DNA of 64,000 nt from Acetivibrionales bacterium. Its GTDB lineage: Bacteria > Bacillota > Clostridia > Acetivibrionales > JBMNNH01. The DNA is taken from positions 25,502 through 89,501 of the forward strand of contig JBMNNH010000022.1 of assembly GCA_050953835.1 (NCBI GenBank), read 5' to 3'. Below are positions 16,490 through 64,000 of the stretch, one piece after another. Both the position numbers and the translations under genes were made by a program. The notes under the pieces are model-generated. The model did no database searches. It saw only the letters and a list, made by a program, of their open reading frames with translations, and was not told the origin of the DNA. Positions within the stretch are counted from its first letter, which is position 1; the number at the start of each line of letters is the position of its first letter.

Positions 16490-16493
16490 GGCT

Positions 16494-16524: not shown

Positions 16525-16549
16525 TAAGTTCTTTATGGAGGACGCCAAG

Positions 16550-18133: not shown

Positions 18134-18168
18134 CGAAATGATATATTTGGCAAAAAAGGAGTAAGGTA

Positions 18169-26838: not shown

Positions 26839-26888
26839 TTATAGCTTTTGATTAATTAGAATAAAAATATAATAACAAGGAGGCAGCA

Positions 26889-28718: not shown

Positions 28719-28792
28719 AAAGAGGATTTTTTGTTTCAGTATAGAATAAAATAACTGACAACAGTATTAGTGCTGATACAGGAGGTTATTGC

Positions 28793-29320
28793 TTGGACAT
28801 AAAAGATGAAATGAATAAAAAGTGCAGTTTCTGTAATGAAACTATTTCCAGTAGTACCTGGCGATGCCCTTATTGCGGCAGTTTGCTCAAGGATAGTGAT
28901 GCAGGCCTGGATGATAACCCTGAAAACAGTAATGTAGACTTTGCTGGCGATGGTGATAAAAGTGAAGATCTTAAAGAAGATGCTGTTACTGTTATTAATG
29001 ACAATCAGCCAGAAAAACCTGATGAACAGTTTGGCAAGATTGAAAGTAATATTGTAAACACAGCTGTCAGACAGAAAGAGCAGGTTCCCAATCCTTTAAG
29101 CAATGGTATAAAGGTTTTTTTGACGGTAATCTCTACTATTATTCCTGGTTTAGGACAGCTTGCAGGAATAATTATGGCAATAGTATTCATGAACAGCGGG
29201 GATGACCCGGATAGAAAATCATTTGGCGTGGCCCTATTGATTTCATCCTTGATTTTCTTTATCCTGTCATGCCTGGGTTGCTTTATTGCTCTGATAGCCG
29301 CTTCGGCTATGCAGGTTTAA
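28793..29320 (+). CDS. zinc-ribbon membrane protein
   Basis: CSFC...CPYCG ribbon, an acidic linker and two C-terminal TM helices. AGGAGG lies 8 nt upstream of the TTG start. Confidence 0.6.
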   Translation: MDIKDEMNKKCSFCNETISSSTWRCPYCGSLLKDSDAGLDDNPENSNVDFAGDGDKSEDLKEDAVTVINDNQPEKPDEQFGKIESNIVNTAVRQKEQVPNPLSNGIKVFLTVISTIIPGLGQLAGIIMAIVFMNSGDDPDRKSFGVALLISSLIFFILSCLGCFIALIAASAMQV

Positions 29321-29325
29321 TTGTG

Positions 29326-30003
29326 ATGGATACTCTGATAGACATTTTTATGAAGATTGGTTCAATGATGTGCCATCAATTGCCTGAAAGGACACTATAC
29401 GTATCAAATATGCCACTGCCCATGTGTGCAAGAGATACCGGCATATATTTTGGAGTGTTTTCTGCTTTTGCATATACTTTTTTTAATAAGAGGTTGAGGG
29501 CAAATAAACCTCCTTCCCTTAAACAGGCGGTTCTTCTTTGCCTGTTTATGTTGCCAATGGTTTTGGATGCAATAAGTTCATACCTTGGGTTAAGAAGTAC
29601 AAACAATACTATAAGGTTGTTTACAGGAGCACTTTTTGGGGTATCAATACCGTTTTTATTAGTTCCTGCAGCAAACTTTAAAGTATATAACAGTAATACG
29701 GAAGATATAATAAAGGACTGGAAAGAACCGTTTTGTGCTTTGCTTATTGCAATTGCACTTTGTGTGGCAGTATTAAAGACAGGTTTAATTCCCTGGATAG
29801 TTGTAAGCAGTATTCTGGTTTTTTCGCTTACTCTTTTAATATCCAGAATGGTTTATACAGTTTTTATACGTACAGGATTTTCAAGTAAAGCTTATTTTAA
29901 TGGCATGGTGGTAGGTGCATCTGCTATTATAATATTATTATTGTTTATGTTATCCAATTATATTTTGCACCCACTTATTGATGTATGGATTGAAAAGGGA
30001 TAG
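29326..30003 (+). CDS. DUF2085 family membrane protein
   Basis: MCHQLPERTL motif at the N-terminus plus multiple TM helices. ATG 29326 lies just after the upstream stop, so the track's start at 29269 is an overlap artefact. Confidence 0.7.
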   Translation: MDTLIDIFMKIGSMMCHQLPERTLYVSNMPLPMCARDTGIYFGVFSAFAYTFFNKRLRANKPPSLKQAVLLCLFMLPMVLDAISSYLGLRSTNNTIRLFTGALFGVSIPFLLVPAANFKVYNSNTEDIIKDWKEPFCALLIAIALCVAVLKTGLIPWIVVSSILVFSLTLLISRMVYTVFIRTGFSSKAYFNGMVVGASAIIILLLFMLSNYILHPLIDVWIEKG

Positions 30004-30029
30004 AATTTTAGTTATATATAAAGGAAGAT

Positions 30030-30644
30030 ATGGTGGTTGATTTGAAGGATATGAAAGGTGAAATAAGAAAAAGAATTCTAGGTTTGAGAAATGCAATGAC
30101 GGAAGCCGAGGTTGAAGAAAAAAGCAGGGAAGTACTTAAAGCTGTTTTGGGGATTGACAGCTTTGATGTTTTTGGCACTGTCATGTGTTATATGGATTTT
30201 AACAATGAAGTAAAGACAGGAGAAATAATAAACCTTTTCCTCTCAAAGGGGAAAAGGGTAGCAATACCTGCAGTCGAAAAATATGGAAAAACAGCGAAAA
30301 GCAGAATAGTAGCCTACCAGATTAACAGTCTTGAAGAAGAAATGCAAAAAGGAGCTTATGGGATTTTGGAGCCTGTTAAGGATATTTCGAGGGTAGTTGA
30401 TCCTAAAGAATTCGAACTAGTACTTGTCCCGGGTGTGGCATTCGATAGAAATGGCAATAGAATTGGATTTGGAGCGGGTTATTATGATAAGTTCCTCTGC
30501 AAGACTAGAAAGGACTGCGTGAAAGCCGGGCTTGCTTATGAATACCAAGTTTTGGATAGTATTCCGGCAGAAAAACATGATATCCTTATGGATTATATAA
30601 TAACAGAGAAAGGTATAGTGAAAGGAAAAGGCGATGAGAAATAG
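30030..30644 (+). CDS. 5-formyltetrahydrofolate cyclo-ligase
   Basis: IRKRIL..R N-terminus and VPGVAFDRNGNRIGFGAGYYD motif. Confidence 0.88.
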   Translation: MVVDLKDMKGEIRKRILGLRNAMTEAEVEEKSREVLKAVLGIDSFDVFGTVMCYMDFNNEVKTGEIINLFLSKGKRVAIPAVEKYGKTAKSRIVAYQINSLEEEMQKGAYGILEPVKDISRVVDPKEFELVLVPGVAFDRNGNRIGFGAGYYDKFLCKTRKDCVKAGLAYEYQVLDSIPAEKHDILMDYIITEKGIVKGKGDEK

Positions 30645-31720: not shown

Positions 31721-32461
31721 TTGGATTTCAACTTTGATTTTGACCCTGCAAATCCCCATAAGATATTTCTTACTCCTCAATTAAAACAGGCACTGGAAAT
31801 CCTAATAATGAGTACACACGAACTATATAATTATGCTTACCGTCAAATAGAAATAAATCCTGCCCTGGAGATTTCAACAGAAGATGAAAGTACCTGTGAA
31901 AGCGGCCTCGTGACTACTGTTGAGCAGGTTGACTGGGAACATGAAGTGCTTTCCGGGCACGATACACTGGATGAAGATGGCGGATATGCTGAACGCAACA
32001 ATGGTACTATTGCTGAAAGGACCGCCTCCAGGCCAAATTTAAGGGAGTTTATCCCGTATATAATATGTGATGTCAGTGTAAAAGGGATAAGGAATAACTT
32101 TGAGGTTATACTGAACGAAGATGCTTTTCCTAATCTAAAGATAAGCAAATGTTTCATGGATATAATGGCTCAGGACACAAGCCCTGATACCAGAAAATTT
32201 ATACAGGACAGGATTAATAGAGCAAAATGGCTTATAAAGTGCATTGAGAAACGAAAGAGTATACTCAGAAGAATAACAGAATACATTACCAGAAGCATGC
32301 CCGAATTTTTTTCAAAAGGCAGGGATTTTTTAAAGCCCTTGAAAATTGATGGGGCAGTGGTACAGTTAAATTTACCTGAATATGTTTTTAAAGCAGCTAT
32401 AATAAATAAGTACCTGCAATGCCGTTGGGGCAGTTTTGAGATGAAGGCTTTTTTTGATTAA
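31721..32461 (+). CDS. truncated/degenerate sigma-54 (RpoN/SigL)-like protein lacking the core-binding domain and RpoN box
   Basis: aa 16-50 (FLTPQLKQALEILIMSTHELYNYAYRQIEINPALE) resembles RpoN region I. aa 110-246 aligns with the RpoN DNA-binding region up to FEMKxFF (RKSILRRITEYITRSMPEFFSKGRDFLKPL...GSFEMKAFFD). The TTG start follows AAGAGGTGGA. Confidence 0.6.
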   Translation: MDFNFDFDPANPHKIFLTPQLKQALEILIMSTHELYNYAYRQIEINPALEISTEDESTCESGLVTTVEQVDWEHEVLSGHDTLDEDGGYAERNNGTIAERTASRPNLREFIPYIICDVSVKGIRNNFEVILNEDAFPNLKISKCFMDIMAQDTSPDTRKFIQDRINRAKWLIKCIEKRKSILRRITEYITRSMPEFFSKGRDFLKPLKIDGAVVQLNLPEYVFKAAIINKYLQCRWGSFEMKAFFD

Positions 32462-32766
32462 AAAGGCCACCTAGGTTTGGAGGGAGTAGTTTTTAGGCCT
32501 AGAAAACCTTCTATTCCATTGCTGCCAAAGTAATCTCTTTCAATTTCCCTTATTCTTTCTTCGGTGTAATAGTTTATCTCTCCTACTTTTTTTACATCAT
32601 CAGCATAATCTCTCAATCTCTGCATTTCTTTAGAGGTTAATGCTGACTGGCATCCTTCTGAGTTCAATATGCGCTTCAATTCTGATGAGTACTCATAACC
32701 GTCATCCATATCCTTTAAAGCGTTCTTTAAAAAATACTTTAGACTTTCCGGTATCTGGCGTTCCAT
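32458..32766 (-). CDS. hypothetical small protein (102 aa)
   Basis: AAGAGGTGA SD with ATG at 32766 (MERQIPESLKYF...) and TGTATAAT upstream on the minus strand. The track's longer N-terminus reads through the promoter. I recognise no family. Confidence 0.5.
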   Translation of the reverse strand: MERQIPESLKYFLKNALKDMDDGYEYSSELKRILNSEGCQSALTSKEMQRLRDYADDVKKVGEINYYTEERIREIERDYFGSNGIEGFLGLKTTPSKPRWPF

Positions 32767-32897
32767 GTAAATATCACCTCTTAACAATATATTATACATT
32801 TTTTGAGAAGATTTAAACCATATATTCAGGACAATTTTTAAATTTTTTATTTTGTTCATATAGATAGTACTAGAATTATTCTTCAGGGTGGTATTTA

Positions 32898-33056
32898 ATG
32901 GGTGTGAGAAAATATAGCAGAAAGCTTCCGGCGGTTATTAAACTGTACAGTAATGAGAAATACTGGGAAAAGGTACTGGAGGAAATAGTTAATATTTATA
33001 TGGAGAAATACTATTTTTGGGAAACTATAAGGAATGATAATAATGGTATTGAATAA
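32898..33056 (+). CDS. possible 52-aa ORF overlapping the recombinase start
   Basis: MGVRKYSRKLPAVIKLYSNEKYWEKVLEEIVNIYMEKYYFWETIRNDNNGIE, preceded by AGGGTGG. It is below the track's size cut-off and I recognise no homolog. Confidence 0.3.
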   Translation: MGVRKYSRKLPAVIKLYSNEKYWEKVLEEIVNIYMEKYYFWETIRNDNNGIE

Positions 33057-34599
33057 TGCTACAGGGAATTCTAATGTTGGTATTTATGTCAGGGAAAGCA
33101 GGGACGACAACGAGGAGAACTATGATACCATAGAAACCCAAAGGGATCTACTTATAAATTTCGTTAATAAGAATAATTTTGGGGAAATAGTGGGTATATA
33201 TATGGATAATAACGCTTCAGGAGCCGGTTTTGACCGGGGAGGGATTTTCCAGTTAAGGAAGGACATTGAGGGAAGAAAAATTGACCTGCTTATTATTAAA
33301 GATTTATCTAGGTTAGGCAGAAACAATGCAAAAACCTTGCTCTTTCTCGATTACCTCGAAGAAAATGGGGTACGTGTTCTGACCTATGACGGAAGGTATG
33401 ACAGCGTCAGGGATAATGAGACTGTAGGTATTGAAACCTGGTTTAATGAAAGGTATATCCAGGATATATCAAAGAAGATAAGAGCCAGTTTAAGGTTCAA
33501 AATCGAAAAAGGAGAATATATAGGCCGCGCACCCTTTGGCTACAAAAAACCAGGCAAGGGGAAAAATAAACTTTGTATTGATGAGGATACATGCCATATT
33601 ATTAAAGAAATTTTTAATCTTTACCTGCAGGGATACGGGTATTCATCCATATCAAAAATACTGGACAACAGGGGGTACCCTTCACCTTCAATGGGGAAGT
33701 GGAATCCTGTGGCAGTACAAAGGATCCTTTCAAATCGTGTGTATATTGGAGATACTGTTCAGGGTGTAAGTGAGAAAGTCAGTTATAAAAGTAAAAAAAG
33801 AAGGCGGCTTCCCGGGAACGAATGGAAAATAACTGAGGGAACCCATGAAGCTATAATAAGCAAAGAAGAGTTTAATGAAGTCCAGAGATTGAGAGGCTCC
33901 AGAAGAGCTTCACACGGCCCGCATAAAGGGACAATACATCTTTTCAGGGGTACTCTCTACTGCGGCAGGTGTGGAAGTACCATGTATGCCAGAAAAAGAA
34001 CAAACCGGCCTATGGGGTATGTTTGCAGCAACTATAGTAAGCACGGAAGGGGTGTGTGCACAAGCCACTACATTAATGAAAGCCTATTGGAGAGTATAAT
34101 TGCGGATGAAATAACCTGTATATTCATGAATGAAGCAGTGATAAAAAAAATTAAGAATTATCTTGATAACACTGGAGCCAGAATTAATGATGCTTCAAAA
34201 AAAAGGGAGAGTGTTAGAAAGAGGTTAGCGGTAAAATTGAAACAGCAGGAAATACTATACATGGACAGACTGCACAGGAAAATCTCGGAAGAGCTCTTTT
34301 TAAGGATAAACAGCAATTTAGAAAATGATATAGGGTACTTAAAAAGGGAAATAAGAAGGATAAGTAATACAAATAATGAAGATTTTAAGGCAGAAAAGAT
34401 TATTGAGTATATTATCAAAGACTTTAAAGAAAAGGGTTTATCACAAAGCATAATAAAATTGGTAATAAACAGGATAACAGTGTTTGATGAATATGACAAA
34501 GAAGTATTTAAAGAGGCATTTAACTTGTCTGCTGAAAAACATGCATGCGACAATTGGAATGGAGCAGTTGTTATTGATTTTAAAGGAAATAAGGTGTAA
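33043..34599 (+). CDS. large serine recombinase (resolvase/recombinase + zinc-ribbon + coiled coil)
   Basis: N-terminal catalytic domain (VGIYVRESRDD, ASGAGFDRGG, KDLSRLGRN), a recombinase domain, a CGRCG...C..Y..H..C zinc ribbon, and a C-terminal coiled coil. The start is ATG 33043 or 33034. Confidence 0.88.
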   Translation: MVLNNATGNSNVGIYVRESRDDNEENYDTIETQRDLLINFVNKNNFGEIVGIYMDNNASGAGFDRGGIFQLRKDIEGRKIDLLIIKDLSRLGRNNAKTLLFLDYLEENGVRVLTYDGRYDSVRDNETVGIETWFNERYIQDISKKIRASLRFKIEKGEYIGRAPFGYKKPGKGKNKLCIDEDTCHIIKEIFNLYLQGYGYSSISKILDNRGYPSPSMGKWNPVAVQRILSNRVYIGDTVQGVSEKVSYKSKKRRRLPGNEWKITEGTHEAIISKEEFNEVQRLRGSRRASHGPHKGTIHLFRGTLYCGRCGSTMYARKRTNRPMGYVCSNYSKHGRGVCTSHYINESLLESIIADEITCIFMNEAVIKKIKNYLDNTGARINDASKKRESVRKRLAVKLKQQEILYMDRLHRKISEELFLRINSNLENDIGYLKREIRRISNTNNEDFKAEKIIEYIIKDFKEKGLSQSIIKLVINRITVFDEYDKEVFKEAFNLSAEKHACDNWNGAVVIDFKGNKV

Positions 34600-45103: not shown

Positions 45104-45556
45104 ATGCATTTCACAAAAACTATTGGGGGCGGAATTGTGTTTAAGTCGGAAAGCAGGTTTATTGTAAGGTATGCAGAAACTGACCAGATGGGTATTGTAC
45201 ACCACTCTTGCTACCCAATCTGGTTTGAAGCCGGCAGGACTGATTTTATAAGGAAGCTGGGATTATCCTACTCAAAGATTGAAGAGATGGGTTTTTTACT
45301 CCCTTTGATTGAATTGAAATGTACTTATATTGGTTTTGCCCGTTATGAAGATGACATACTGGTCAGGACAAGCATTAAGGAACTTACATACACAAGGGTA
45401 GTATTCTATTATGAGGTTTTTAAAAATTCTGGCAGCGAGAGGATAACTACAGGTGAAACAATGCATGTGTGGACAAACAAGTCTCTGAAGCCTTTGAATT
45501 TAAAAAAGCATGCGCCACATATTTATGAGCTGCTGCATAATATAAATAATAAATGA
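45104..45556 (+). CDS. acyl-CoA thioesterase (YbgC/4HBT hot-dog family)
   Basis: RYAETDQMGIVHHSCYPIWFEAGRTDF is typical of the family. The start may instead be GTG 45137. Confidence 0.8.
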   Translation: MHFTKTIGGGIVFKSESRFIVRYAETDQMGIVHHSCYPIWFEAGRTDFIRKLGLSYSKIEEMGFLLPLIELKCTYIGFARYEDDILVRTSIKELTYTRVVFYYEVFKNSGSERITTGETMHVWTNKSLKPLNLKKHAPHIYELLHNINNK

Positions 45557-52374: not shown

Positions 52375-54768
52375 ATGGATAATAGAGTTTTAAAAACATT
52401 AGAATTTAATAAAATAGCAGAAAAACTGGTGGAGCTGTCATCATCAGAATTAGGTAAGGAGATATCTGCTTCTATTACGCCGCAGCAGGATTACTGTACT
52501 GTTAAGGATTTGTTGAAGGAAACAAGTGATGCCTTAGATTTCATTGTCAAGAAAGGAAGCCCCCCTTTGGGAGGAATACATGATATCAGAAGCAGTATAA
52601 AGCGGGTTGAAATGGGCGCTGTTTTAAGTCCAGCTGAGCTTTTAAAAATAGCTGACCTATTAAGAGCTGCCAGAAGATTCAGGAATTATGCCAGAGGTGC
52701 TCAATCATCAAGAGAGGCTCTGTTAGACGAAGAGAACATTGTTTATGGGATGGCTGGTTCACTGGAAGGAAACAGAGCCATTGAAGATAAGATATACTTT
52801 TCGATACTGGGAGAGGAAGAAATTGCAGACGATGCCAGCAGTACACTCAGGAGCATTAGAAGAAAGATAAAAGACATCCAGGAATCTATTAAGGATAAAC
52901 TGAACGGTGTAATAAAGTCTGCCAGGTATCAGAAATTTATCCAGGAACCAATAGTTACAATGAGAGGGGACAGATATGTAATACCGGTTAAACAGGAATA
53001 CAGGAACGAAATCAAAGGGTTAGTGCATGATTCATCGTCTAGTGGAGCTACGATATTTATTGAACCTATGGCTGTTGTAGAGGCAAATAATGATATTAAA
53101 CAGCTAAGGATTAAGGAACAGGCAGAGATAGAAAGGATACTTCAGGAACTAACCTGTGATGTAAATGGTATACTAACAAGTCTGAAAACAAATGTCTCTA
53201 TACTGGCAAGGCTGGATTTTATATTTGCAAAAGCCAGGCTAAGTTTAAAATATGATTGTGTTTGCCCTGTAATAAATAACAACCAGCATATTAGAATAAA
53301 AAAAGGAAGGCACCCGCTTCTGGACAGGGATACTGTAGTTCCTATAGACTTCTGGATTGGTGAAGGTTTTAACACAATGGTTATTACCGGGCCTAACACA
53401 GGCGGAAAAACAGTTACTCTTAAGACAGTTGGGCTTTTTACGCTTATGACACAGGCCGGACTGCATATTCCTGCTAATGATGGCACAGAAATGGGAATAT
53501 ATAATTCAGTGTTCGCAGATATAGGTGATGAACAAAGCATAGAACAGAGTTTAAGCACTTTTTCTTCACACATGGTCAATATTGTAAACATATTAAAAAA
53601 AGCAGATGAAAGGTCGCTGGTACTTTTCGATGAACTGGGAGCAGGTACAGACCCTACAGAGGGGGCTGCTTTGGCAATGTCTATACTTGAGTGCCTGCGT
53701 GAAAGAGGTACAAGCACTGTTGCTACAACGCATTACAGCGAACTGAAGATTTATGCGGTATCCACAGAGGGAGTGGAGAATGCTTCCTGTGAATTTGATG
53801 TAAAAACCCTTAAACCAACTTATAGGCTTTTGATAGGCACACCAGGGAAAAGTAATGCTTTTGCAATTTCCCATAGGCTTGGCCTGGATGAAGAAATTTT
53901 GGAAAGAGCAAGGACTTTCCTTAGCAAAGAAGATATACAGTTTGAAGATGTGCTTGTAACCATAGAGAAGAACCGCAGTGAAGCAGAGCAGGAAAAAATA
54001 AGGGCTGAAAGCTATCGAATAGAAATTGAAAGGCTAAAAAAGGAATTGGAAGGTGAGAAACAAAAATTTGACCGGCAAAAGGAAAGGATAATAAAGGAAG
54101 CAAAACAGGAAGCCAGGAAGATACTCCTTGAGACAAAGAGGGAAGCTGACACTATTTTAAGTGAAATAAAGCGTCTGGAGGAGGAGCAAATAAGTGCTGA
54201 AAAGAATCGTACCGCAGAAGAAATGAAGATGCGGTTGAGAAATAAGATAAATGAGCTTGAGGAATCCATGGTGGAACCACTCATGCCCAAAAAAGGATAT
54301 ATTAAGCCTCCCGAAGGCCTTAAACCTGGAGACAGTGTATTAATAGTGAATCTCAATCAGAAAGGTACTGTTATTACACCGCCTGGTAAAGACGGGGAAG
54401 CTGTAATACAGGCTGGAATTATGAAAATTAATGTACATGTAACAAACCTGAAATTAATAGATGAACAGAAGAAGGAAATTGACAGGGTTTCTACAGGGAG
54501 GACTGCAATGTCAAAAACCCGGAAAGTCTCTACAGAGATAGACCTGAGAGGAACAACCATCGAAGAGGCTCTGGATTATGTAGACAAATTCCTTGATGAT
54601 GCAAGTATTTCCGGACTTAATGAAGCAATAATAATTCATGGTAAAGGTACAGGGGCTTTAAGAAGCGGAATACATCGGTTTCTAAAAAGCCATGCTCATG
54701 TAAAATCATACAGACTTGGGAAATATGGAGAGGGCGAAACAGGGGTTACTATTGTTGAGATAAAATAA
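52375..54768 (+). CDS. mutS2: endonuclease MutS2
   Basis: Walker A GPNTGGKT, DELGAGTDP, a long coiled coil, and a C-terminal Smr domain (IDLRG...IIHGKGTGALR). Confidence 0.95.
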   Translation: MDNRVLKTLEFNKIAEKLVELSSSELGKEISASITPQQDYCTVKDLLKETSDALDFIVKKGSPPLGGIHDIRSSIKRVEMGAVLSPAELLKIADLLRAARRFRNYARGAQSSREALLDEENIVYGMAGSLEGNRAIEDKIYFSILGEEEIADDASSTLRSIRRKIKDIQESIKDKLNGVIKSARYQKFIQEPIVTMRGDRYVIPVKQEYRNEIKGLVHDSSSSGATIFIEPMAVVEANNDIKQLRIKEQAEIERILQELTCDVNGILTSLKTNVSILARLDFIFAKARLSLKYDCVCPVINNNQHIRIKKGRHPLLDRDTVVPIDFWIGEGFNTMVITGPNTGGKTVTLKTVGLFTLMTQAGLHIPANDGTEMGIYNSVFADIGDEQSIEQSLSTFSSHMVNIVNILKKADERSLVLFDELGAGTDPTEGAALAMSILECLRERGTSTVATTHYSELKIYAVSTEGVENASCEFDVKTLKPTYRLLIGTPGKSNAFAISHRLGLDEEILERARTFLSKEDIQFEDVLVTIEKNRSEAEQEKIRAESYRIEIERLKKELEGEKQKFDRQKERIIKEAKQEARKILLETKREADTILSEIKRLEEEQISAEKNRTAEEMKMRLRNKINELEESMVEPLMPKKGYIKPPEGLKPGDSVLIVNLNQKGTVITPPGKDGEAVIQAGIMKINVHVTNLKLIDEQKKEIDRVSTGRTAMSKTRKVSTEIDLRGTTIEEALDYVDKFLDDASISGLNEAIIIHGKGTGALRSGIHRFLKSHAHVKSYRLGKYGEGETGVTIVEIK

Positions 54769-54856: not shown

Positions 54857-54885
54857 TTGTATAAACAAAAAAAAACATCTATAAT
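54857..54885 (+). promoter_or_regulatory. candidate sigma-A promoter for the NRPS gene
   Basis: TTGTAT (54857-54862), a 17-nt spacer, then TATAAT (54880-54885), about 67 nt upstream of the GTG start. Confidence 0.55.
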
Positions 54886-54951
54886 GTTATTGTAAATATT
54901 CAAGTTGCCAGTTATACATGAATTATTCGTACATGGGGGCTAAGTTATACA

Positions 54952-57900
54952 GTGAATAATGAGAGGGCTTACTATCCATTAACATACCCACAGAAGGGGA
55001 TATGGTACACTGAAAAAATGTATCCTGGGACAAGCATATGTAATATTGCAGGCACAGTAAAAATTTTTGGAAAAGTAGATTGTGTACTGCTCGAAAAAGC
55101 TATAAACATTCTCATTGAAAGAAATGATTCTTTAAGGATTAGAATTACTATTCATGATGACGAACCTGCACAATACATTTCACCATACGAATATAAACAT
55201 ATTGATTTTTTCGATTTCAGTAATGATGGCCTGAACAGCATGTATAAATGGGAAGAGAAAGAAACACCCAAACCGTTTCAAATAATTGAATCCGATTTGT
55301 TTTATTTTGCCATATTGAAAATCAATAACACAGATTATAGGTTTTATATAAAGACACATCATCTGGTATCAGACGCATGGACAATGAATTCCATAGTCAA
55401 TCAGGTTATGGATAATTACACAAAACTGGTTGAAGGCAAAAGCATCAGCAGTGAAAAGAAACCATCATATATAGAATATATAAACAGGGAAAATGATTAT
55501 AAGAGTTCTAAAAAATTTATAAAGGATAAAATTTTCTGGGACAAAGTCTTCGAAGACATGCCGGAAATAAGCACATTGAAAACGCAGGATGAAAATCTGA
55601 AGTCAACTGCTGCAGAAAGAAAGCCATTTATTATTCCGGGAAATCTGGCAGCAAGAATTAATGATTTTTGTTTAAGCAATAAAATTTCTATATTTACTTT
55701 TTTTCTTTCTTTTCTTGCAGTATATATTCACAGGATTACTTTCAAAGATGATATTGTAATAGGCACTCCTGTGTTGAACAGATCGAATTACAGGGAAAAG
55801 GATATGCTGGGAATGTTTATTAGCACTATTCCCATAAGGATACAAATTGACAGCACAATGGATATTACTTCGTTTATTAAAAAATTATCAAAGGAATGGT
55901 TTGTTTTTTTAAAACACCATGAATATCCTTATGAACTTCTGATAAAAGATATTAGGAGCAAGCATAAAGGTGTAAAAAACCTGTATGATGTTATTCTTTC
56001 TTATCAGAATGCAAAACTTATAAAAGAGGGCTGTATTCATAGCTTTGAAGGAAGATGGCATTTTAGCGGATATCAGAAGGATTCACTGTATATTCATATA
56101 AATGACAGGGAAGCAGACGGAAACCTAATAATGGACTACGATTTTGTTACCCAATATTTTACTTCTGAAGATATAGAGAACATTCATAAACGGCTACTTG
56201 TTATTCTGCAGGATGCAATGGAAAACCCGCAGAAGAAGATATATGAATTGGAAATAATGGATGCTGAGGAAAAGAAGAATGTTTTATACAAGTTTAACAA
56301 CAGCGAAGCTGATTATCCAAAGGGTAAGACTATAAACCGGTTATTTGAAGAACAGGTGGAAAGAACCCCTGACTCTATTGCTGTTATATTTGAGGATAAA
56401 AGGCTTACATACAGGGAATTGAATAGTAAAGCCAATAAGCTGGCAAGAGAACTGAGAAGGATGGGAGTTGGACCTGAAAGCATAGTTGCAGTTATGCTGA
56501 GACGATCCCTGGAAATGGTTATTGGTATTATAGGTGTTTTAAAAGCTGGTGGAGCATATTTGCCGTTAGATCCTGATTATCCTGAAGAAAGGCTATCCTT
56601 TATGATGGATGATAGCAATGTGGAGGTGTTATTGACTCATTCTGATATAAAAAAAGACTTTGCATTTAAAGGCAAAAGAATTCTTATTAACCAACAGGAT
56701 ACATCTATGATTAGTGACTCAAATTTGCCAGATGTTAATGATGCCAACCATCTTATATATGTAATCTACACATCAGGTTCTACAGGGAAGCCGAAGGGGG
56801 TTATGCTGGAGCATAGATCAGTAGCTAATTTTATTAAAGGCGTAAAGGATAAAATAGATTTTTCCCCGGGGAAAACTATCTTGTCAGCAACAACAATATG
56901 CTTTGACATATTTGTCCTTGAAACTTTACTGCCGTTAACCAGCGGACTGAAAGTTGTTATTGCTAATGAAAATGAGCAGAAAATACCAAGGATGTTGAGT
57001 AAAGCGATTTTGAGAAACAATGTAACAATGTTTCAAACTACACCTTCACTAATGCAGCTATTGTTAAATGATGCAGACGGCTCTTCATGCCTTAAAAACC
57101 TCTCAGAACTCATGATAGGAGGAGAAGCATTCCCACAAAAGATGTTGGAAAGACTGAAGGAAATTACAGAAGCAAAGATATATAATATGTATGGCCCTAC
57201 TGAAACAACTGTATGGTCAACAATTAAAGATTTAACCAAGTCATGTAAAATTAGTATTGGGACGCCTATAGCTAATACACAGATTTATATTTTGGACAAA
57301 TGTTTAAATCCTGTTCCAATAGGTATTATTGGGGATATGTATATTGGTGGCGATGGTCTTGCACGAGGGTATCTGAACAGGCTCGAACTTACCAGGGACA
57401 GATTTATAGAAAACCCTTTCATTTCAGGTAAAAAGGTGTATAAAACCGGTGATGTTGCCAGATGGCTCCCTGAAGGAGAAATAGAGTGTCTAGGGAGAAG
57501 TGATAATCAAGTAAAAATACGGGGATTAAGGATTGAATTAGAAGAAATTGAAAACCATATTCTAAAGCATCCTTCAGTGAAGGAAGCCGTTGTAATAGAC
57601 AGGGAAGACAGTAAAGGGACAAAATACCTGTGTGCATATGTGGTGCTCAACAGCGAAGTTGAGCTGTCTGAGATAAGAAACTATTTAACCGGTAAACTTC
57701 CAATATATATGGTACCCTCTTACTTTATCGTAATTGATAAAATACCTTTAACTCAGAATGGTAAGGTTAACAGAAAGGTACTTCCAGAACCCAGTGTTGA
57801 TTGTTACAGAATTGATGATTATGTTCCGCCATCAAATCCTATTGAGGTTAAACTCTGTGATATGTGGTCTGAAATTCTTAATATTGATAGAATTGGCATA

Positions 57901-60900
57901 AATGATAATATTTTAGAATTGGGGGGCGATTCACTCACTATAATCTCTATAGCCTCTTTGATTTATAAGGAGTTTAGTATAGAGATTTCAATAGAGGATA
58001 TTTACAGAAGGCCTACAATAAATGCATTAGGAAGTTTTATTGAAAAAGCAAAGAGGAATGAGTTTTTACCAATTACTGTTATAGAGAGGAAAAAGTATTA
58101 CCAATTATCATCTGCACAAAAAAGACTATATATACTTTCACAGCTCGAGAATAACAATACTGTAAACAATATCCCATGGGTCATGGCAGTGGATGGAAGT
58201 ATTGATGTCAATAAACTGGAAAGTGTGCTTAAGCGGTTGATAGCTAGGCATGAATCATTAAGAACGGGGTTTACAATATTTAATGGGACTCCTGTACAGG
58301 AAGTTTTTGATATAACAGACTTCAAAGTTGAATATTATAGAGCAAAAGAAGAGGAAATAGAGGGTATTGTTGAAAAATTCATAAGACCATTTGATTTGGG
58401 CACACCTCCTCTGCTAAGAGCTGGCCTTATTGAAATATCAAAAAAGAGATATATACTTATGCTTGACATGCATCACATAATCTCTGATGGTGCTTCGCTT
58501 AATATTCTGTTAAAGGAATTAGTGGATATTTATAATGGAAAGGAACTGCCTGATCTCAAAGTGCAGTACAAGGATTATTCAGAATGGCAGAGACAACTTA
58601 TTAAAACTGAAACAGTTAGAAAACAGAAAGACTATTGGCTAAAAGTGTTTTCTGATGAAATACCGGTTTTAAACCTGCCTTACGACTATCAAAGGCCTCC
58701 TATACAGGACTTTGTTGGAGATAGGGTGAGCTTCAGGGCAAATAAGGAGCTTACAGCTAAACTAAAGAAGTTATCGTTGAGTACAGGTACCACATTGTAT
58801 ATGTTGCTTCTGGCAGCATATAATATTCTATTGGCTAAGTATTCCGGACAGGAAGATATAATAATTGGTTCGCCTGTTGCTGGCAGAAACTATTTTGATT
58901 TGGAGGGTATGGTTGGGGTATTCATAAATACAGTTGCAATGAGAAATAAGCCTGTTGGCCGGAAGACATTTACTGAGTTTTTAAGTGAAGTTAAGGAAAA
59001 CTCGATAAAGGCTTTTTCAAATCAGGATTACCCATTTGAAGAATTAGTGGGCAGATTAAAGCTTATTAGAGATTTAAGCCGAAATCCACTTTTTGATACA
59101 ATGTTTATTTTGCAAAGTAGTGGTTTAACAGAGTTAGAAACTTACGATTTTAAACTAAAAGCTTATGAATTTAAACATAATGTATCCCAATTCGATTTGT
59201 TGTTGGGTGCAGTCGAGGAAAAAGATGAAATCCTATTTGTATTTGATTATTGTACCAAACTTTTTAATAGGGATACTGTTGAGAGATTTGCAAACCACTT
59301 CCTCAATATATTAATTAGGGTAACTGAAAACCCTGATTTGAAGCTTTTGAATATCGACCTTCTTTCTGAAGAAGAAAGATGCCGGTTATTATTTGAGTTT
59401 AACAGAACAAAGACAGGCTTTCCATGTGATAAAACAGTTCACAAGCTATTTGAAGAGCAGGTTGAAAGAACACCGGAAAAAACTGCAATTGTTTTTGAGG
59501 ATAAAGAATTAACTTATAGGGAGTTAAATGAGAAATCCAACCAACTAGCAAGATTATTAAGGGAAAAGGGTGTTAAGTCAAACAGTATCGTTGGAATAAT
59601 GATAAACAGGTCACTTGAAATGATAATAGGTATTATGGGGATTATTAAGTCAGGAGGCTCTTACCTGCCTATTGATCCTGATTTTCCTGAAAACAGGATC
59701 AAATATGTATTAAATGACAGCAATGTAGATATTGTCATTACTAATAGCTCCCTTAAACCAAAAGTTTACACAGATAGTAACGTTATTCTAATCGATGAAA
59801 TTAAGAATTCTGATTTTAGTACAAAAAACCTTGAGAATATAAATAAGCCGGAAGATTTGATTTATGTAATATACACTTCAGGCTCAACCGGAAACCCTAA
59901 AGGGGTAATGCTTACTCACAGGTCCGTAATAAACTTTATTAAAGGAGTTACAGACAAAATTGGTTTTTCATCTAATAAGACAATAATATCTCTGACTACT
60001 ATTTCTTTTGATATATTTGTGCTTGAAACACTGCTTCCATTAGTAAAAGGTTTAAAGTGTGTGATAGCAAATGAGGATCAGCAGAAACAACCAAAGCTTT
60101 TAAGCGAAGCTATTATTAGGAATAAAGTTGATATGCTTCAGATAACTCCTTCCAGGCTTCAGTTACTTATTGAGTATGAAGATTTTTTTAATTGTTTAAA
60201 GCTTTTATCTGAGATTATGGTTGGAGGCGAAGCTTTTCCCCAGCAGCTTCTTGATAAACTAAAAAAATTAACAAAAGCCCGTGTATATAATATGTATGGA
60301 CCAACAGAAACTACAGTATGGTCAACAATTAAAGACTTAACAGTTTGCGAAAAAGTAAATATCGGAAGTGGGATAGCAAATACTCAGCTATATATATTAA
60401 ATGCAGACTTGAACCCTGTACCTATAGGCGTTCCAGGAGATTTATACATTGGTGGAGAAGGCCTTGCAACAGGGTATTTAAATAACCCTGAGCTAACAGA
60501 TGAAAGATTTATTCCCAATCCTTTTATTGAGAATGAAAGAATTTATAAAACAGGGGATATTGCAAGGTGGCTTAATAATGGAGATATTGAATGTTTAGGT
60601 AGAATTGATCATCAGGTAAAAATTATGGGACATAGGATAGAGCTGGAAGAGATTGAAAACAAACTCCTTGAAATTGAATGTGTAAAAGAGGCAGTAGTAA
60701 CTGTGAGAAGAAGCAAAAAGAGCACTCCGTACTTATGTGCATATATTGTGTTAAGCCCTAATAGAGAAATATCCGCAAAAGAGCTGAGGGATTATTTATT
60801 AAAAAACCTTCCTGTATATATGGTGCCAACTAGTTATTCTTTCATTAATAATATTCCTCAAACGCCTAATGGTAAGATTGACAGAAAGTTCTTATCCGAA

Positions 60901-62394
60901 TTTGAAGTAGAAATGATAAATGAAACTTGTATTTTAAAACCAGCAAATGAAGTTGAAGATAAACTTTTAAAAATATGTTCAGAGGTATTAAACATTGGAG
61001 AGATAGGTGTAAATAGCAACTTATTTGAGCTTGGTGCGGACTCATTATCAATCATTATGATACAGATAAAAACATTTCAATACAATTGGGGTTTGACAAC
61101 GCAGGATTTTTACAGATACCAGACTATAAGGGAGCTTTCAGAAATGATTATTGAGAAGATGGAAGAAAGTAATGATTCCAGAATAGATGCTGTTGATAAT
61201 GCTACAGATGATTTTCAAAAGACGGTGGATGATACAAGCGTTGTTAACAATAAAGAGAGCCCCATTGGTAGTGTACTTCTGACAGGGGCAACAGGTTTTC
61301 TTGGCATCCATATTTTGTGCGACCTTTTATCTTATACGGACTTAAATATTTACTGCCTTATGCGCGATGAGTATAAAGAGGTATCAGAAGAACGCCTTAA
61401 AGGTATGCTTAATTATTATTTTAATGGGAAATACAAAGAATTAATAAATGAAAGGGTATTTATTGTTAACGGTGATATTACACAGGAAAGGTTTGGCTTG
61501 CAAAACAATAAATATGAAGCGCTCGGACAAACTGTAGACATAGTAATTCACGCAGCAGCAAAAGTTGACCATTTTGGCGTGTACTCGGATTATGAAAGAG
61601 TGAACGTTCTAGGAACCGGCAATGTCATAGATTTTTCTCTTAAATATAATAAGCTGTTGTATCATATATCAACTATGAGCGTTTCGGGTACTTATATTGT
61701 AGATAAAGAAAAGGTTAAGACAATTTTTACAGAAAAGGATTTTTATATTGGACAGAATTACAAAGATAATGTGTATGTGAGGAGTAAATTTGAAGCTGAA
61801 AGACTAATTTTTAATGCAGTAAAGTCCGGATTGAAAGCTGTAATTTTAAGGGTTGGGAATTTGACTGGAAGGTATTCAGATGGCCTTTTTCAGATTAATA
61901 TGGATAAAAATGCTTTTTATAATAGGATTAGGTCAATAATAGAATTGAGAGCTTTGCCAAATGAAATTCTGGAACATTCCGTAGAGTTTACACCTGTGGA
62001 CTGCTGCAGCAGTGCAATCGTGAAAACAATTATGTGCAATAGACCAGTCCCACGTGTACTACATTTATTTAACAATAATTGTATCAGCTTGACAGATTTT
62101 ATTAATATACTTACTTCTTTGGGAATCTGTATTGAAACAATGGATAGCCGCTCTTATGCTGACTACGTAGAAGGAATTTCCAAGGATAAAAGCAAGCAAA
62201 AGGCTTTAATGGGTATAATTCAGGATTTTAACGGAGGAAGAGAGCTTGAATATAGTTCTTCTATAGTGACAGACTCACATATCACAAGAGAGTTTTTGAG
62301 GAAACTCGGTTTTCATTGGCCCCATATAGGTACTAAATATATTCATGATATAGTTGATAGTATAACAAAAAAATATTTGATTATGAATAATTAG
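54952..62394 (+). CDS. bimodular non-ribosomal peptide synthetase, C(starter)-A-T-C-A-T-R(thioester reductase)
   Basis: 2480-aa ORF. GTG 54952 is the first canonical start after the in-frame stop at 54919. The motifs are listed in the domain features below. Confidence 0.93.
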   Translation: MNNERAYYPLTYPQKGIWYTEKMYPGTSICNIAGTVKIFGKVDCVLLEKAINILIERNDSLRIRITIHDDEPAQYISPYEYKHIDFFDFSNDGLNSMYKWEEKETPKPFQIIESDLFYFAILKINNTDYRFYIKTHHLVSDAWTMNSIVNQVMDNYTKLVEGKSISSEKKPSYIEYINRENDYKSSKKFIKDKIFWDKVFEDMPEISTLKTQDENLKSTAAERKPFIIPGNLAARINDFCLSNKISIFTFFLSFLAVYIHRITFKDDIVIGTPVLNRSNYREKDMLGMFISTIPIRIQIDSTMDITSFIKKLSKEWFVFLKHHEYPYELLIKDIRSKHKGVKNLYDVILSYQNAKLIKEGCIHSFEGRWHFSGYQKDSLYIHINDREADGNLIMDYDFVTQYFTSEDIENIHKRLLVILQDAMENPQKKIYELEIMDAEEKKNVLYKFNNSEADYPKGKTINRLFEEQVERTPDSIAVIFEDKRLTYRELNSKANKLARELRRMGVGPESIVAVMLRRSLEMVIGIIGVLKAGGAYLPLDPDYPEERLSFMMDDSNVEVLLTHSDIKKDFAFKGKRILINQQDTSMISDSNLPDVNDANHLIYVIYTSGSTGKPKGVMLEHRSVANFIKGVKDKIDFSPGKTILSATTICFDIFVLETLLPLTSGLKVVIANENEQKIPRMLSKAILRNNVTMFQTTPSLMQLLLNDADGSSCLKNLSELMIGGEAFPQKMLERLKEITEAKIYNMYGPTETTVWSTIKDLTKSCKISIGTPIANTQIYILDKCLNPVPIGIIGDMYIGGDGLARGYLNRLELTRDRFIENPFISGKKVYKTGDVARWLPEGEIECLGRSDNQVKIRGLRIELEEIENHILKHPSVKEAVVIDREDSKGTKYLCAYVVLNSEVELSEIRNYLTGKLPIYMVPSYFIVIDKIPLTQNGKVNRKVLPEPSVDCYRIDDYVPPSNPIEVKLCDMWSEILNIDRIGINDNILELGGDSLTIISIASLIYKEFSIEISIEDIYRRPTINALGSFIEKAKRNEFLPITVIERKKYYQLSSAQKRLYILSQLENNNTVNNIPWVMAVDGSIDVNKLESVLKRLIARHESLRTGFTIFNGTPVQEVFDITDFKVEYYRAKEEEIEGIVEKFIRPFDLGTPPLLRAGLIEISKKRYILMLDMHHIISDGASLNILLKELVDIYNGKELPDLKVQYKDYSEWQRQLIKTETVRKQKDYWLKVFSDEIPVLNLPYDYQRPPIQDFVGDRVSFRANKELTAKLKKLSLSTGTTLYMLLLAAYNILLAKYSGQEDIIIGSPVAGRNYFDLEGMVGVFINTVAMRNKPVGRKTFTEFLSEVKENSIKAFSNQDYPFEELVGRLKLIRDLSRNPLFDTMFILQSSGLTELETYDFKLKAYEFKHNVSQFDLLLGAVEEKDEILFVFDYCTKLFNRDTVERFANHFLNILIRVTENPDLKLLNIDLLSEEERCRLLFEFNRTKTGFPCDKTVHKLFEEQVERTPEKTAIVFEDKELTYRELNEKSNQLARLLREKGVKSNSIVGIMINRSLEMIIGIMGIIKSGGSYLPIDPDFPENRIKYVLNDSNVDIVITNSSLKPKVYTDSNVILIDEIKNSDFSTKNLENINKPEDLIYVIYTSGSTGNPKGVMLTHRSVINFIKGVTDKIGFSSNKTIISLTTISFDIFVLETLLPLVKGLKCVIANEDQQKQPKLLSEAIIRNKVDMLQITPSRLQLLIEYEDFFNCLKLLSEIMVGGEAFPQQLLDKLKKLTKARVYNMYGPTETTVWSTIKDLTVCEKVNIGSGIANTQLYILNADLNPVPIGVPGDLYIGGEGLATGYLNNPELTDERFIPNPFIENERIYKTGDIARWLNNGDIECLGRIDHQVKIMGHRIELEEIENKLLEIECVKEAVVTVRRSKKSTPYLCAYIVLSPNREISAKELRDYLLKNLPVYMVPTSYSFINNIPQTPNGKIDRKFLSEFEVEMINETCILKPANEVEDKLLKICSEVLNIGEIGVNSNLFELGADSLSIIMIQIKTFQYNWGLTTQDFYRYQTIRELSEMIIEKMEESNDSRIDAVDNATDDFQKTVDDTSVVNNKESPIGSVLLTGATGFLGIHILCDLLSYTDLNIYCLMRDEYKEVSEERLKGMLNYYFNGKYKELINERVFIVNGDITQERFGLQNNKYEALGQTVDIVIHAAAKVDHFGVYSDYERVNVLGTGNVIDFSLKYNKLLYHISTMSVSGTYIVDKEKVKTIFTEKDFYIGQNYKDNVYVRSKFEAERLIFNAVKSGLKAVILRVGNLTGRYSDGLFQINMDKNAFYNRIRSIIELRALPNEILEHSVEFTPVDCCSSAIVKTIMCNRPVPRVLHLFNNNCISLTDFINILTSLGICIETMDSRSYADYVEGISKDKSKQKALMGIIQDFNGGRELEYSSSIVTDSHITREFLRKLGFHWPHIGTKYIHDIVDSITKKYLIMNN
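54967..56250 (+). other. NRPS condensation domain 1, starter (lipo-initiation)-like
   Basis: YYPLTYPQKGIWYTEKMYPGTSICNIAG resembles the SrfAA N-terminal starter C domain (YPLTDAQKRIWYTEKFYPHTSISNLAG as I recall it). The catalytic motif is HHLVSDA at 55357-55377. Confidence 0.65.
56329..57786 (+). other. NRPS adenylation domain 1
   Basis: LTYRELN (56404), YTSGSTGKPKG (56767), YNMYGPTETT, YKTGDVARW, and NGKVNRK with the Lys at 57763. Confidence 0.9.
57835..58040 (+). other. NRPS carrier (T/PCP) domain 1
   Basis: LELGGDSL, with the phosphopantetheine Ser codon at 57931-57933. Confidence 0.85.
58096..59360 (+). other. NRPS condensation domain 2
   Basis: YYQLSSAQKRLYIL start and canonical HHIISDG at 58471-58491. 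Confidence 0.88.
59434..60897 (+). other. NRPS adenylation domain 2
   Basis: LTYRELN (59509), YTSGSTGNPKG (59872), YNMYGPTETT, YKTGDIARW, and NGKIDRK with the Lys at 60874. Confidence 0.9.
60943..61146 (+). other. NRPS carrier (T/PCP) domain 2
   Basis: FELGADSL, with the Ser codon at 61042-61044. Confidence 0.85.
61270..62361 (+). other. NRPS terminal thioester reductase (SDR-type R domain)
   Basis: VLLTGATGFLG Rossmann motif (~61276-61300), YVRSK catalytic Tyr/Lys (61774-61788), and about 370 aa after T2. Confidence 0.85.
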
Positions 62395-62419
62395 TGGATG
62401 GAAAGGGGGCATAAAATGT

Positions 62420-64000
62420 ATGGATAGTTTTGACATAGTGTTTATTCTACTTCATCTATCCACTTTATTAGTATTTTTCTTATTTATACAAATCTTAAGA
62501 AAGGCGAATAAATCACAAATTCATTATGCATTCTTAAGCTTTATGGGCTTGTTGCTTATTTGGTGTATTGGAGTGATAGTTGAAACTTATTTAAGAGATA
62601 CAAACATTCATTTGGTTTTTTTCTTTGATAAAATAGCATATATTGGTATTTGCTTTATTCCCATACCTATGTTATTTGTAGGATTAATATTTGCCCATAC
62701 GAGAATTAACTTTACATGGAAATACTTGCTATTACTGGTTGTGCCTGTTATATCTACAATTGTACTTTGGACTAATGACTTTCATCATTTGTTTTATAAG
62801 GAATTCTCCATGATAAGCAGTCAGATTGTTTATGGTGAGTATTTTATTGTCCATACTTTATACTCATATACTTGTATTATAGTGGGGTTATATCATCTTA
62901 TTTATTTTTCTATAAAAAACTCCGGCTTCTTTTCAAAGCAAGCAATTTTGATTATTTTAGCAACTCTGGTTCCTCTTATTATAAATATATTGTTTACACT
63001 AAATGTGTTACAGCTGTCTTTACATGCTACACCGGTAGCATTTTCTTTTATGATTATTTGTTATTTGTTTGCAATTTTAAAATATCAATTTCTTAGTGTT
63101 GCGCCTGTTGCTCTCCAGAAAGTTGTTGACTTGATTTCAGACAGCTTTATTGTTTTAAATGAAGAGCTTAAAATAATTGATTATAATAAAACATGCATTG
63201 ACACTTTCGGTGAAGGATTCAGAATTAAAAGGAATGAGAATATTCTGGATGTGATGAAATCAAGTCCTGTTAATAATATCGCTGTGAGCGATGTTAAACG
63301 TGTCATTTTTCTGGCGAAAAAAAGGAAGAAATCCATCAAATTTGATAAGCAAATCAAATCCATTAGTTGTGATAAATACTTTACAATTGAAATAACTCCG
63401 ATTATATCCGATAATAACTATATAGGAACAATAATACTGTTAAAGGATATTACACAGGTAAGAGAGAATATTGAAACCATAAAAAAGAACCAGGCAATAC
63501 TTGTTGAGCAAGAGAGGCTTGCTTCGCTGGGACAGTTGATAGGAGGTATTGCTCATAACCTGAAAACGCCTATAATGTCTCTTTCAGGAGCTATTGAGGG
63601 TCTTTGGGATTTGGTAAGAGAATATGATGAATCAATAGATGATGATAATGTTACCAGGCAGGACCATCATGAGATTGCTTCAGAAATGGGAAAATGGCTG
63701 GAAAAAATGAAACCATACTGTTCATACATGTCTGATGTAATAACCACTGTAAAAGGACAGGCTGTACAGTTTAATACCGTGTCCGACATAAGTTTTACTT
63801 TGGATGAACTGGTCAAGAGAATAAATATTTTAATGAAGCATGAGTTAATTAAGTACAACTGTATCATGAATACTAATTTCCAAGTAGACCTTGGTACAGA
63901 AATAAAAGGAGAGATAAACAATTTAGTTCAAATATTTGATAATATAATTATTAATGCCATTCATTCATATGAAGGCAAAAATGGAATAATAGACTTTAAT
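62420..64000 (+). CDS. sensor histidine kinase with N-terminal 7TM domain, PAS-like linker and HisKA/HATPase core; 3' end outside window
   Basis: The frame is open from ATG 62420 to the window end, so it is absent from the ORF track. About 7 TM helices (MDSFDIVFILLHLSTLLVFFLF...) are followed by the H-box ERLASLGQLIGGIAHNLKTPI near 63510-63570. GAAAGGGGG lies upstream. Confidence 0.85.
   Translation, partial: MDSFDIVFILLHLSTLLVFFLFIQILRKANKSQIHYAFLSFMGLLLIWCIGVIVETYLRDTNIHLVFFFDKIAYIGICFIPIPMLFVGLIFAHTRINFTWKYLLLLVVPVISTIVLWTNDFHHLFYKEFSMISSQIVYGEYFIVHTLYSYTCIIVGLYHLIYFSIKNSGFFSKQAILIILATLVPLIINILFTLNVLQLSLHATPVAFSFMIICYLFAILKYQFLSVAPVALQKVVDLISDSFIVLNEELKIIDYNKTCIDTFGEGFRIKRNENILDVMKSSPVNNIAVSDVKRVIFLAKKRKKSIKFDKQIKSISCDKYFTIEITPIISDNNYIGTIILLKDITQVRENIETIKKNQAILVEQERLASLGQLIGGIAHNLKTPIMSLSGAIEGLWDLVREYDESIDDDNVTRQDHHEIASEMGKWLEKMKPYCSYMSDVITTVKGQAVQFNTVSDISFTLDELVKRINILMKHELIKYNCIMNTNFQVDLGTEIKGEINNLVQIFDNIIINAIHSYEGKNGIIDFN

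Follow-up and report, generated by a model that had tools for sequence, protein, structure and literature searches.

In the Rpf/DSF (diffusible signal factor) system of Xanthomonas, the signal is made by the synthase RpfF, sensed by the kinase RpfC and relayed to RpfG, a regulator that joins a receiver (REC) domain to an HD-GYP domain and degrades cyclic di-GMP (c-di-GMP). The alpha-hydroxyketone systems CqsA/CqsS of Vibrio and LqsA/LqsS of Legionella also place an autoinducer synthase beside a polytopic membrane kinase for an acyl-tailed ligand, and in the Agr and ComQXP pherotype systems signal and receptor diversify together. Nonribosomal peptide synthetases (NRPSs) that end in a reductase domain form another body of work; their dipeptide-aldehyde family in gut Clostridia was reportedly described by Guo et al. 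in 2017 (Cell 168:517), and the ruminopeptin (rup) system of Ruminococcus bromii is said to have been reported by Schneider and Balskus in 2018. The products of the gut family are dipeptide aldehydes, some of them N-acylated, ruminopeptin being among the compounds described (PMC8210680, PMC12327764), and AusA/PznA, the dimodular synthetase of aureusimine in Staphylococcus aureus, also carries a terminal reductase and gives a dipeptide aldehyde (PMC8210680). Here, we describe a synthetase of the second kind in a genetic setting that resembles the first. The window, by which the whole analysed stretch of 64,000 nucleotides from an uncultured Acetivibrionales metagenome-assembled genome (MAG; contig JBMNNH010000022.1) is meant, encodes on its forward strand at 54952-62394 a 2480-residue NRPS with a GTG start, deposited under NCBI MGI6778327.1 with an automatic name only, as a MAG entry. 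The gene is the first of a widespread three-gene unit that comprises the NRPS, a histidine kinase with a seven-transmembrane (7TM) sensor and a REC-HD-GYP regulator. At a probability of roughly 0.5, the NRPS would be the signal synthase of a synthase-receptor-c-di-GMP output cassette, its product being sensed by the adjacent kinase.

A sequence-only reading of this DNA had placed the synthetase between mutS2 and a sensor kinase. Both neighbours are confirmed: mutS2 lies at 52375-54768 on the forward strand (TIGR01069, 972.8 bits), outside the cassette, as a conserved upstream synteny anchor, and the kinase, with a 7TM sensor, a PAS-like region and a DHp/CA (dimerization and catalytic) core, occupies 62420-64000 on the same strand (HisKA_7TM, E 3.4e-41), where it is cut by the window end. 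The same reading had taken the NRPS for an orphan one-gene pathway between unrelated genes, a view that the conservation of its downstream partners contradicts. The kinase begins 25 nt after the NRPS stop codon with no terminator in the gap, and its full-length form has 614 residues (P0125, 100% identical). Contig L091, which is 99.94% identical to the window over 62320-64000 (1681 nt), continues into a 501-residue REC-DUF3369-HD-GYP protein, the start of which overlaps the kinase stop, and both the HDIGK and HHERIDGKGYP motifs of this protein are intact. Across six loci the HD and GYP motifs of the regulator are conserved, with Pfam matches to Response_reg and HD_5. The regulator has no DNA-binding domain and is therefore not a classical cluster-specific transcription factor.

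The unit recurs in at least three unrelated genomic contexts, with a kinase and a REC-(DUF3369)-HD_5 regulator beside the NRPS in L003, L004, L005/L006, L007, L008 and L001. When metagenomes were searched with the kinase only, 80 loci were obtained, 73 of them with at least 1 kb of upstream DNA, and in 72 of these 73 NRPS domains end just before the kinase (58 terminated by R, the reductase, and six by TE, a thioesterase). The REC-HD-GYP regulator lies directly downstream in 61 of the 73 loci with enough downstream DNA and is found nearby or on the opposite strand in 10 more. In the human-gut loci (L025-L089) the regulator is a short REC-HD_5 protein of about 350 residues that lacks DUF3369; this gut form is highly prevalent, with 1295 members in a single NRPS sequence cluster (P0246), and Clostridium sp. 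CAG:356 and Clostridium sp. 26_21 are the only gut relatives that carry a name. Single-module variants of 1293 residues with the order condensation-adenylation-carrier-thioesterase (C-A-T-TE) and a Ser code (L013:6133-10014, L014 and L020) keep the 7TM kinase and the REC-HD-GYP regulator; these variants would release an N-acyl amino acid, not an aldehyde. No kinase or HD-GYP partner was found near a three-module relative of about 3500 residues with a terminal R (P0080, L009:10001-20524), just upstream of which a separate 205-residue Condensation-domain open reading frame (ORF) is encoded.

Within the unit, the specificity codes of the A domains vary together with the 7TM sensor of the kinase. 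A Mantel-type partial correlation with permutation p values over 26 non-redundant two-module cassettes gave a partial r of 0.64 between A code and 7TM sensor when the kinase core was controlled (p 0.0002), and of 0.44 (p 0.0002) when the NRPS backbone (C1, C2 and R), the kinase core and the PAS-like region were controlled together; in the gut clade taken separately (n=19), with NRPS backbone and kinase core controlled, the value was 0.48 (p 0.0002). No significant association was obtained between A code and NRPS backbone with the 7TM controlled (partial r 0.11), nor between A code and kinase core with backbone and 7TM controlled (partial r -0.12), and the control comparisons of the code with the regulator, the kinase core or C1 came out zero or negative, also in the smallest gut subset (n=13). 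Two kinases, those at L001:17000-19045 and L090:19088-21100, have a different, non-7TM N-terminal sensor (of HAMP type in L090) on a similar core; the L001 kinase is 22% identical in the sensor and 70% in the core, and of these two loci only L001 has a single-module NRPS, with a Thr code. The structural model of the kinase sensor of the window unit is a seven-helix bundle (pLDDT 89.5, pTM 0.87).

The domain order C-A-T-C-A-T-R given by the sequence-only reading is confirmed by Pfam, which returns two Condensation (E 1.6e-214), two AMP-binding and two PP-binding domains and one NAD_binding_4 domain (E 1.2e-47). All features lie on the forward strand. The first condensation domain, C1 (54952-56286, residues 1-445), assigned as starter-type from Pfam, a domain census and its motif, contains the N-terminal stretch YYPLTYPQKGIWYTEKMYPGTSICNIAG, encoded at 54970-55053, and HHLVSDA at 55357-55377 (residues 136-142). 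It is followed by the adenylation domain A1 (56344-57765) and the carrier T1 (57850-58041), whose GGDSL motif holds Ser994 (codon 57931-57933). The second module consists of C2 (58093-59388), with HHIISDG at 58471-58491 (residues 1174-1180), A2 (59422-60888) and T2 (60946-61179), whose GADSL motif holds Ser2031 (codon 61042-61044), and the protein ends in the thioester reductase R (61273-62391), with TGATGFLG at 61282-61305 and YVRSK at 61774-61788. The motifs, carrier serines (57931 and 61042) and reductase signatures that had been quoted earlier thus occur intact at their positions, and the enzyme has the full equipment of a thiotemplate NRPS: HHxxxD in both C domains, the A core motifs (A3, A5, A7, A8 and A10 in each A domain), both carrier serines, and a Rossmann GxxGxxG together with YxxxK in R. 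Identity between A1-T1 and A2-T2 is 57%, while C1 and C2 are only 23% identical. C2 had been called a canonical internal domain, which holds, its HHIISDG being intact and its type being LCL, with 465 bits to the C domain of the TycC PCP-C structure (2jgp; PCP, peptidyl carrier protein).

The nature of C1 bears on whether the chain begins with an acyl group. Scores against solved structures in the PDB failed to separate starter from LCL domains, so a positional and nearest-neighbour census was used for typing. Among 122 NRPSs, the top matches of C1 are N-terminal C domains (231-612 bits), whereas internal C domains reach at most 153 bits. Of 365 C-like domains in the census, 35 of those resembling C1 are N-terminal, three stand behind a non-NRPS, PilZ-like extension and three are ambiguous, while 282 internal domains resemble C2. 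C1 starts at residue 1 of the NRPS, the gene upstream is mutS2 and no upstream carrier is encoded anywhere in the window. The earlier view that C1 is not an internal C type is therefore upheld by its scores and by the census, both of which place it with chain-start domains, and C1 is classed as chain-initiating, which would fit acyl transfer, because its clade is restricted to chain-start positions and no carrier precedes it. C1 shares with the starter C domains of SrfAA and RzmA an N-terminal position, the lack of an upstream carrier, an intact HHxxxD and membership of a chain-start clade; it differs in scoring almost equally against the RzmA domain (100 bits) and an LCL domain (101 bits), and in having no acyl ligase or acyl carrier protein (ACP) nearby. 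The likeness to SrfAA in particular, asserted by the sequence-only reading, is a possibility only, the solved RzmA starter C scoring no higher than an LCL domain. As a separate candidate for lipoinitiation, the N-terminal extension of about 550 residues in three relatives (P0013, P0107 and P0118) was expected to hold an acyl ligase and an ACP, a finding that would have amounted to proof of lipoinitiation; this was rejected, the extension consisting of a PilZ domain and about 330 residues of unknown function.

The pocket codes of the A domains were read by alignment, the columns being set with a fragment of GrsA, for which the textbook code DAWTIAAICK was returned. A1 and A2 have the same Gly-like code, DILQMGMVWK. 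A published Gly code is DILQLGMIWK, with variation at positions 299, 322 and 330 (PMC12283262). Gly-Gly is the best specificity prediction for the two modules, since the window code deviates from the published one at positions 299 and 330 only. Across the cassettes more than 30 code combinations are found, including textbook codes for Thr, Ser, Pro, Phe, Val and Leu, and within this sample Gly-Gly is unique to the window; in gut cassettes the second A domain almost always has DIYTVGI(V/I)LK and the first one varies. The R domain of AusA is aldehyde-releasing and that of MxaA alcohol-forming; R of the window gene scores 137 bits against the former and 111 bits against the latter, which leans towards an aldehyde without settling the matter. 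Its best score, 184 bits, is with 6vtj, reportedly a PCP-R didomain from an NRPS of the archaeon Methanobrevibacter; were this origin correct, it would hint at exchange of NRPSs of this type among gut or rumen anaerobes. The predicted product is thus an N-acyl-Gly-Gly aldehyde or the corresponding alcohol, and the biosynthetic interpretation offered earlier is largely supported.

By its architecture the synthetase belongs, as a new and uncharacterised member, to the C-A-T-C-A-T-R family with reductive release. Like the window gene, the gut dipeptide-aldehyde synthetases are single-gene C-A-T-C-A-T-R (or A-T-C-A-T-R) enzymes of anaerobic Firmicutes, and the link that had been drawn to them is consistent with the secondary literature (PMC8210680, PMC12327764). 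Human-gut metagenome relatives have the same architecture, with identities of only 33-37% in C1 and 36-42% in R, and the window NRPS differs from the gut family in its predicted Gly-Gly specificity and in its host, an uncultured Acetivibrionales MAG. The nearest protein of the same architecture is 56% identical, unnamed and uncharacterised; no near-identical characterised synthetase exists, in agreement with the novelty claimed earlier. The terminal R domain is related to that of AusA; AusA, in contrast, has no starter C domain and the free amine of its product cyclises to pyrazinones, which an N-acylated product cannot do. AusA is not known to have a linked kinase or HD-GYP regulator. In the literature text that could be searched, no connection of such NRPSs with kinases or HD-GYP regulators was found, a prior mention in the primary papers on the gut family being possible, and HisKA_7TM appears there as a catalogued domain only, with no ligand assigned.

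In the proposed signalling mechanism, C1 would acylate Gly on T1 with an acyl-CoA or acyl-ACP drawn from primary metabolism, without a dedicated ligase or ACP; the initiation of surfactin is established to need neither. C2 would then add the second Gly, and R would release the N-acyl-Gly-Gly as an aldehyde, which might be reduced further to the alcohol. Being amphiphilic, the product would partition into the membrane, where the 7TM domain of the cognate kinase would recognise it; the kinase would phosphorylate the REC-DUF3369-HD-GYP regulator, and the switched phosphodiesterase would change, presumably lower, the level of c-di-GMP (or of a related cyclic dinucleotide). From the TE-terminated variants, N-acyl amino acids would be expected as signals. 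Inferred in this scheme are the acyl donor, the product (Gly-Gly, as aldehyde or alcohol), its role as ligand of the kinase and the c-di-GMP output.

The cassette would work like the Rpf/DSF, CqsA/CqsS and pherotype systems without being a member of any of them, because its synthase is an NRPS. With Rpf/DSF it shares a synthase of a lipid-like signal placed beside a membrane sensor kinase and a REC-HD-GYP regulator with intact HD and GYP motifs; RpfF, however, is of the enoyl-CoA hydratase type and makes a cis-2-unsaturated fatty acid, the window kinase is of HisKA_7TM type and not a hybrid, and the host belongs to the Firmicutes, so that the resemblance is one of analogy and not of synthase homology. 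With CqsA/CqsS and LqsA/LqsS it shares an autoinducer synthase beside a polytopic membrane kinase for an acyl-tailed ligand, and the diversification of signal with receptor is matched by the co-variation seen in the NRPS cassettes; the chemistry and receptor families differ from those of CqsA, LqsA, Agr and ComQXP, and the output would be a cyclic-dinucleotide phosphodiesterase instead of a phosphorelay to a transcription factor.

If correct, the signalling role would define a new class of Gram-positive autoinducers, namely NRPS-made N-acyl amino-acid or dipeptide aldehydes, alcohols and acids; it would provide the first ligand class for the uncharacterised HisKA_7TM sensor domain and, in Clostridia, connect c-di-GMP with quorum-type signalling. 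It would also give a bacterial, and not a host-directed, role to a metabolite family that ranks among the most prevalent gut NRPS products, the gut "dipeptide aldehyde protease inhibitors" being recast as a communication system with pherotype-like diversification. Each cassette predicts its own ligand, through the A codes, and its own receptor, which makes the hypothesis directly testable. The generalisation that the starter C-A-T-(C-A-T)-R/TE synthetases of Clostridia, including those of abundant gut species, are autoinducer synthases whose species-specific N-acyl aldehydes, alcohols or acids are read by HisKA_7TM kinases and passed to c-di-GMP through REC-HD-GYP regulators, with PilZ feedback in some lineages, is put forward tentatively, at somewhat below even odds. 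Should synthetase and kinase not form a signal-receptor pair, the gene would still be a new member of the acyl-dipeptide-aldehyde synthetases with an unusual Gly-Gly prediction.

Several points weigh against the signalling role. The characterised relatives are protease inhibitors, not signals, in the literature (PMC8210680, PMC12327764). Adjacency and co-variation are only correlative as a link between product and kinase; because common descent can inflate permutation tests of this type, the co-variation counts as supporting evidence and not as proof, and the code-7TM association is weak (r 0.23-0.27, p 0.045-0.067) within the smallest gut subset (n=13). HD-GYP domains are in some cases inactive or work on nucleotides other than c-di-GMP, and the regulator lies outside the window, known only through the near-identical contig. 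A fold search with the 7TM model hit GPCRs and adiponectin receptors, at E values of 4.6e-3 or more; these are generic 7TM-bundle matches only and give no clue to the ligand. With regard to the synthetase, comparison with solved starter domains leaves the type of C1 ambiguous, the RzmA starter C (7c1h) scoring 100.3 bits, the TycC LCL domain 100.9 bits and CDA-C1 61 bits, and C1 carries HHxxxDA instead of HHxxxDG; the pocket code departs, though at two positions only, from the published Gly code. A PPTase (phosphopantetheinyl transferase) and an exporter are absent from the window. As had been claimed earlier, accessory NRPS genes are lacking there altogether: no PPTase, MbtH, type II thioesterase, acyl ligase, ACP or ABC exporter occurs among the 48 candidate ORFs of at least 120 residues, and a scan of the whole window with a local carrier hidden Markov model and an MbtH motif, in six-frame segments of at least 40 residues, returned no carrier domain or MbtH outside the NRPS. 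A YbgC/FadM-family acyl-CoA thioesterase, encoded at 45104-45556 and thus 9 kb before the NRPS, does not accompany the cassette in other loci and is probably unrelated.

The strongest competitor is the role suggested by the published relatives, in which the N-acyl dipeptide aldehyde made by the NRPS would be secreted and would serve chiefly to inhibit proteases, whether directed against competitors, hosts or the cell's own proteases, while the two-component system would only tune production or respond to the effects. The shared C-A-T-C-A-T-R order with a terminal R, and an R domain that is nearer to aldehyde-releasing AusA than to alcohol-forming MxaA, speak for this role, which we nevertheless hold to be unlikely, though well worth keeping in view. 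A regulator without a DNA-binding output can exert no direct transcriptional control over the NRPS, and the co-variation of A code and 7TM sensor implies specific recognition of the product. Moreover, the TE-terminated variants cannot make aldehydes yet keep both kinase and regulator, and for the subsites of proteases a warhead built on Gly-Gly would be uncommon.

Rather less probable is an inverted order of events, with the NRPS as the output: the kinase would sense an unrelated external cue, the HD-GYP protein would lower c-di-GMP, c-di-GMP would control the NRPS and the product would act elsewhere, for example in the envelope or in development. The tight, operon-like spacing of the genes agrees with such an order, and the PilZ domain fused to the NRPS in P0013, P0107 and P0118 indicates that in part of the family the synthetase is a target of c-di-GMP. 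Pfam recognises this PilZ domain in all three extensions (best E 4.7e-5), the RxxxR and DxSxxG motifs are visible, and the only matches among solved structures are YcgR and a PilZ-type protein of Klebsiella (E about 0.004); as predicted domains, the fusions tie the NRPS family to c-di-GMP independently of the regulator. The locus of P0118 (L090, NRPS at 10001-19036) has two REC-DUF3369-HD_5 regulators nearby. The window NRPS, by contrast, has no PilZ extension, no homolog of the extension is encoded in the window, and neither a c-di-GMP nor another riboswitch was found in the window or in the 5' region of the NRPS. Regulation of the NRPS by c-di-GMP would also leave unexplained why it is the 7TM sensor, and not the NRPS backbone, that the A code tracks. 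Near the PilZ-fused NRPS of L090, a protein encoded at 331-2841 combines HisKA_7TM, GAF, GGDEF and HD_5 domains; judged from these domains, the same type of 7TM sensor is there wired directly to c-di-GMP synthesis and degradation.

That the gene is cryptic or non-functional in its Acetivibrionales host, as might be supposed from the window's lack of a PPTase and from its uncultured host, is very improbable for a 7.4-kb ORF with every catalytic motif intact, in a family conserved in many genomes, one gut member of which stands for a cluster of 1295 sequences.

Foreign origin, which the sequence-only reading had suggested from a low GC content, was rejected on GC, GC3 (third codon positions), codon usage and synteny. 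The remark was numerically right, in that the NRPS has 34.3% GC against 38.8 +/- 2.8% in the 46 other window genes, but the meaning given to it does not stand, the value (z = -1.6) falling within the range of 33.2-44.7%, GC3 (z = -1.3) likewise inside the native range, and the codon-usage distance of the NRPS to the pooled genes being the fourth lowest of 48. A search of genome contigs with MutS2 gave two loci, and the synteny was built from protein-anchored look-ups together with metagenome loci. At six other loci, which represent four distinct genomes and have a MutS2 63-67% identical to that of the window, a related NRPS is likewise found at the mutS2 junction. The loci with a mutS2-NRPS junction are L001 and L012 (both C-A-T-R), L005/L006 and L007 (C-A-T-C-A-T-R) and L013/L014 (C-A-T-TE), and in several of them the order DUF815, DUF5685, a DnaJ-like gene, a small ORF and mutS2, followed by the related NRPS, is shared. 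The closest NRPS relatives, L003 and L004, do not adjoin mutS2, from which it follows that the cassette moved at some point. That the NRPS is a recently acquired orphan dropped by chance between housekeeping and signalling genes, for which its somewhat low GC and this past movement might be cited, is scarcely credible given a native composition and codon usage, a junction occupied in several genomes beside such divergent MutS2 proteins, and kinase and regulator partners kept in nearly all relatives.

Upstream of the NRPS, a candidate promoter read by eye, TTGTAT-17 nt-TATAAT, lies at 54857-54885 on the forward strand, with the -35 element TTGTAT at 54857-54862 and, after the 17-nt spacer, TATAAT at 54880-54885; the coordinate 54857, at which the sequence-only reading had started the feature, is thus the first base of the -35 element. 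A consensus promoter scan did not call this site because the -35 matches in three of six positions only, and the consensus scan for a terminator-like site between mutS2 and the NRPS found none.

Two other parts of the window are mentioned for completeness. A truncated sigma-54 ORF of 246 residues lies in 31721-34599; it retains the activator-interacting domain, no more than a trace of the core-binding domain and, of the 160 positions of the DNA-binding domain, only the first 88. A large serine recombinase (Resolvase, Recombinase, Zn_ribbon_recom) is encoded 570 nt downstream of it, and no RpoN box is encoded elsewhere in the window. The ORF may be a pseudogene, or a sigma-54 gene that an intervening or mobile element has split. 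The segments 98-3983 and 25780-30644 encode a formate-tetrahydrofolate ligase, an FTCD_C cyclodeaminase, FolD, CobT, the RACo corrinoid-activation protein and a 5-formyl-tetrahydrofolate cyclo-ligase, a set of one-carbon and corrinoid genes which suggests acetogen-like or folate- and corrinoid-dependent metabolism in this Acetivibrionales MAG.

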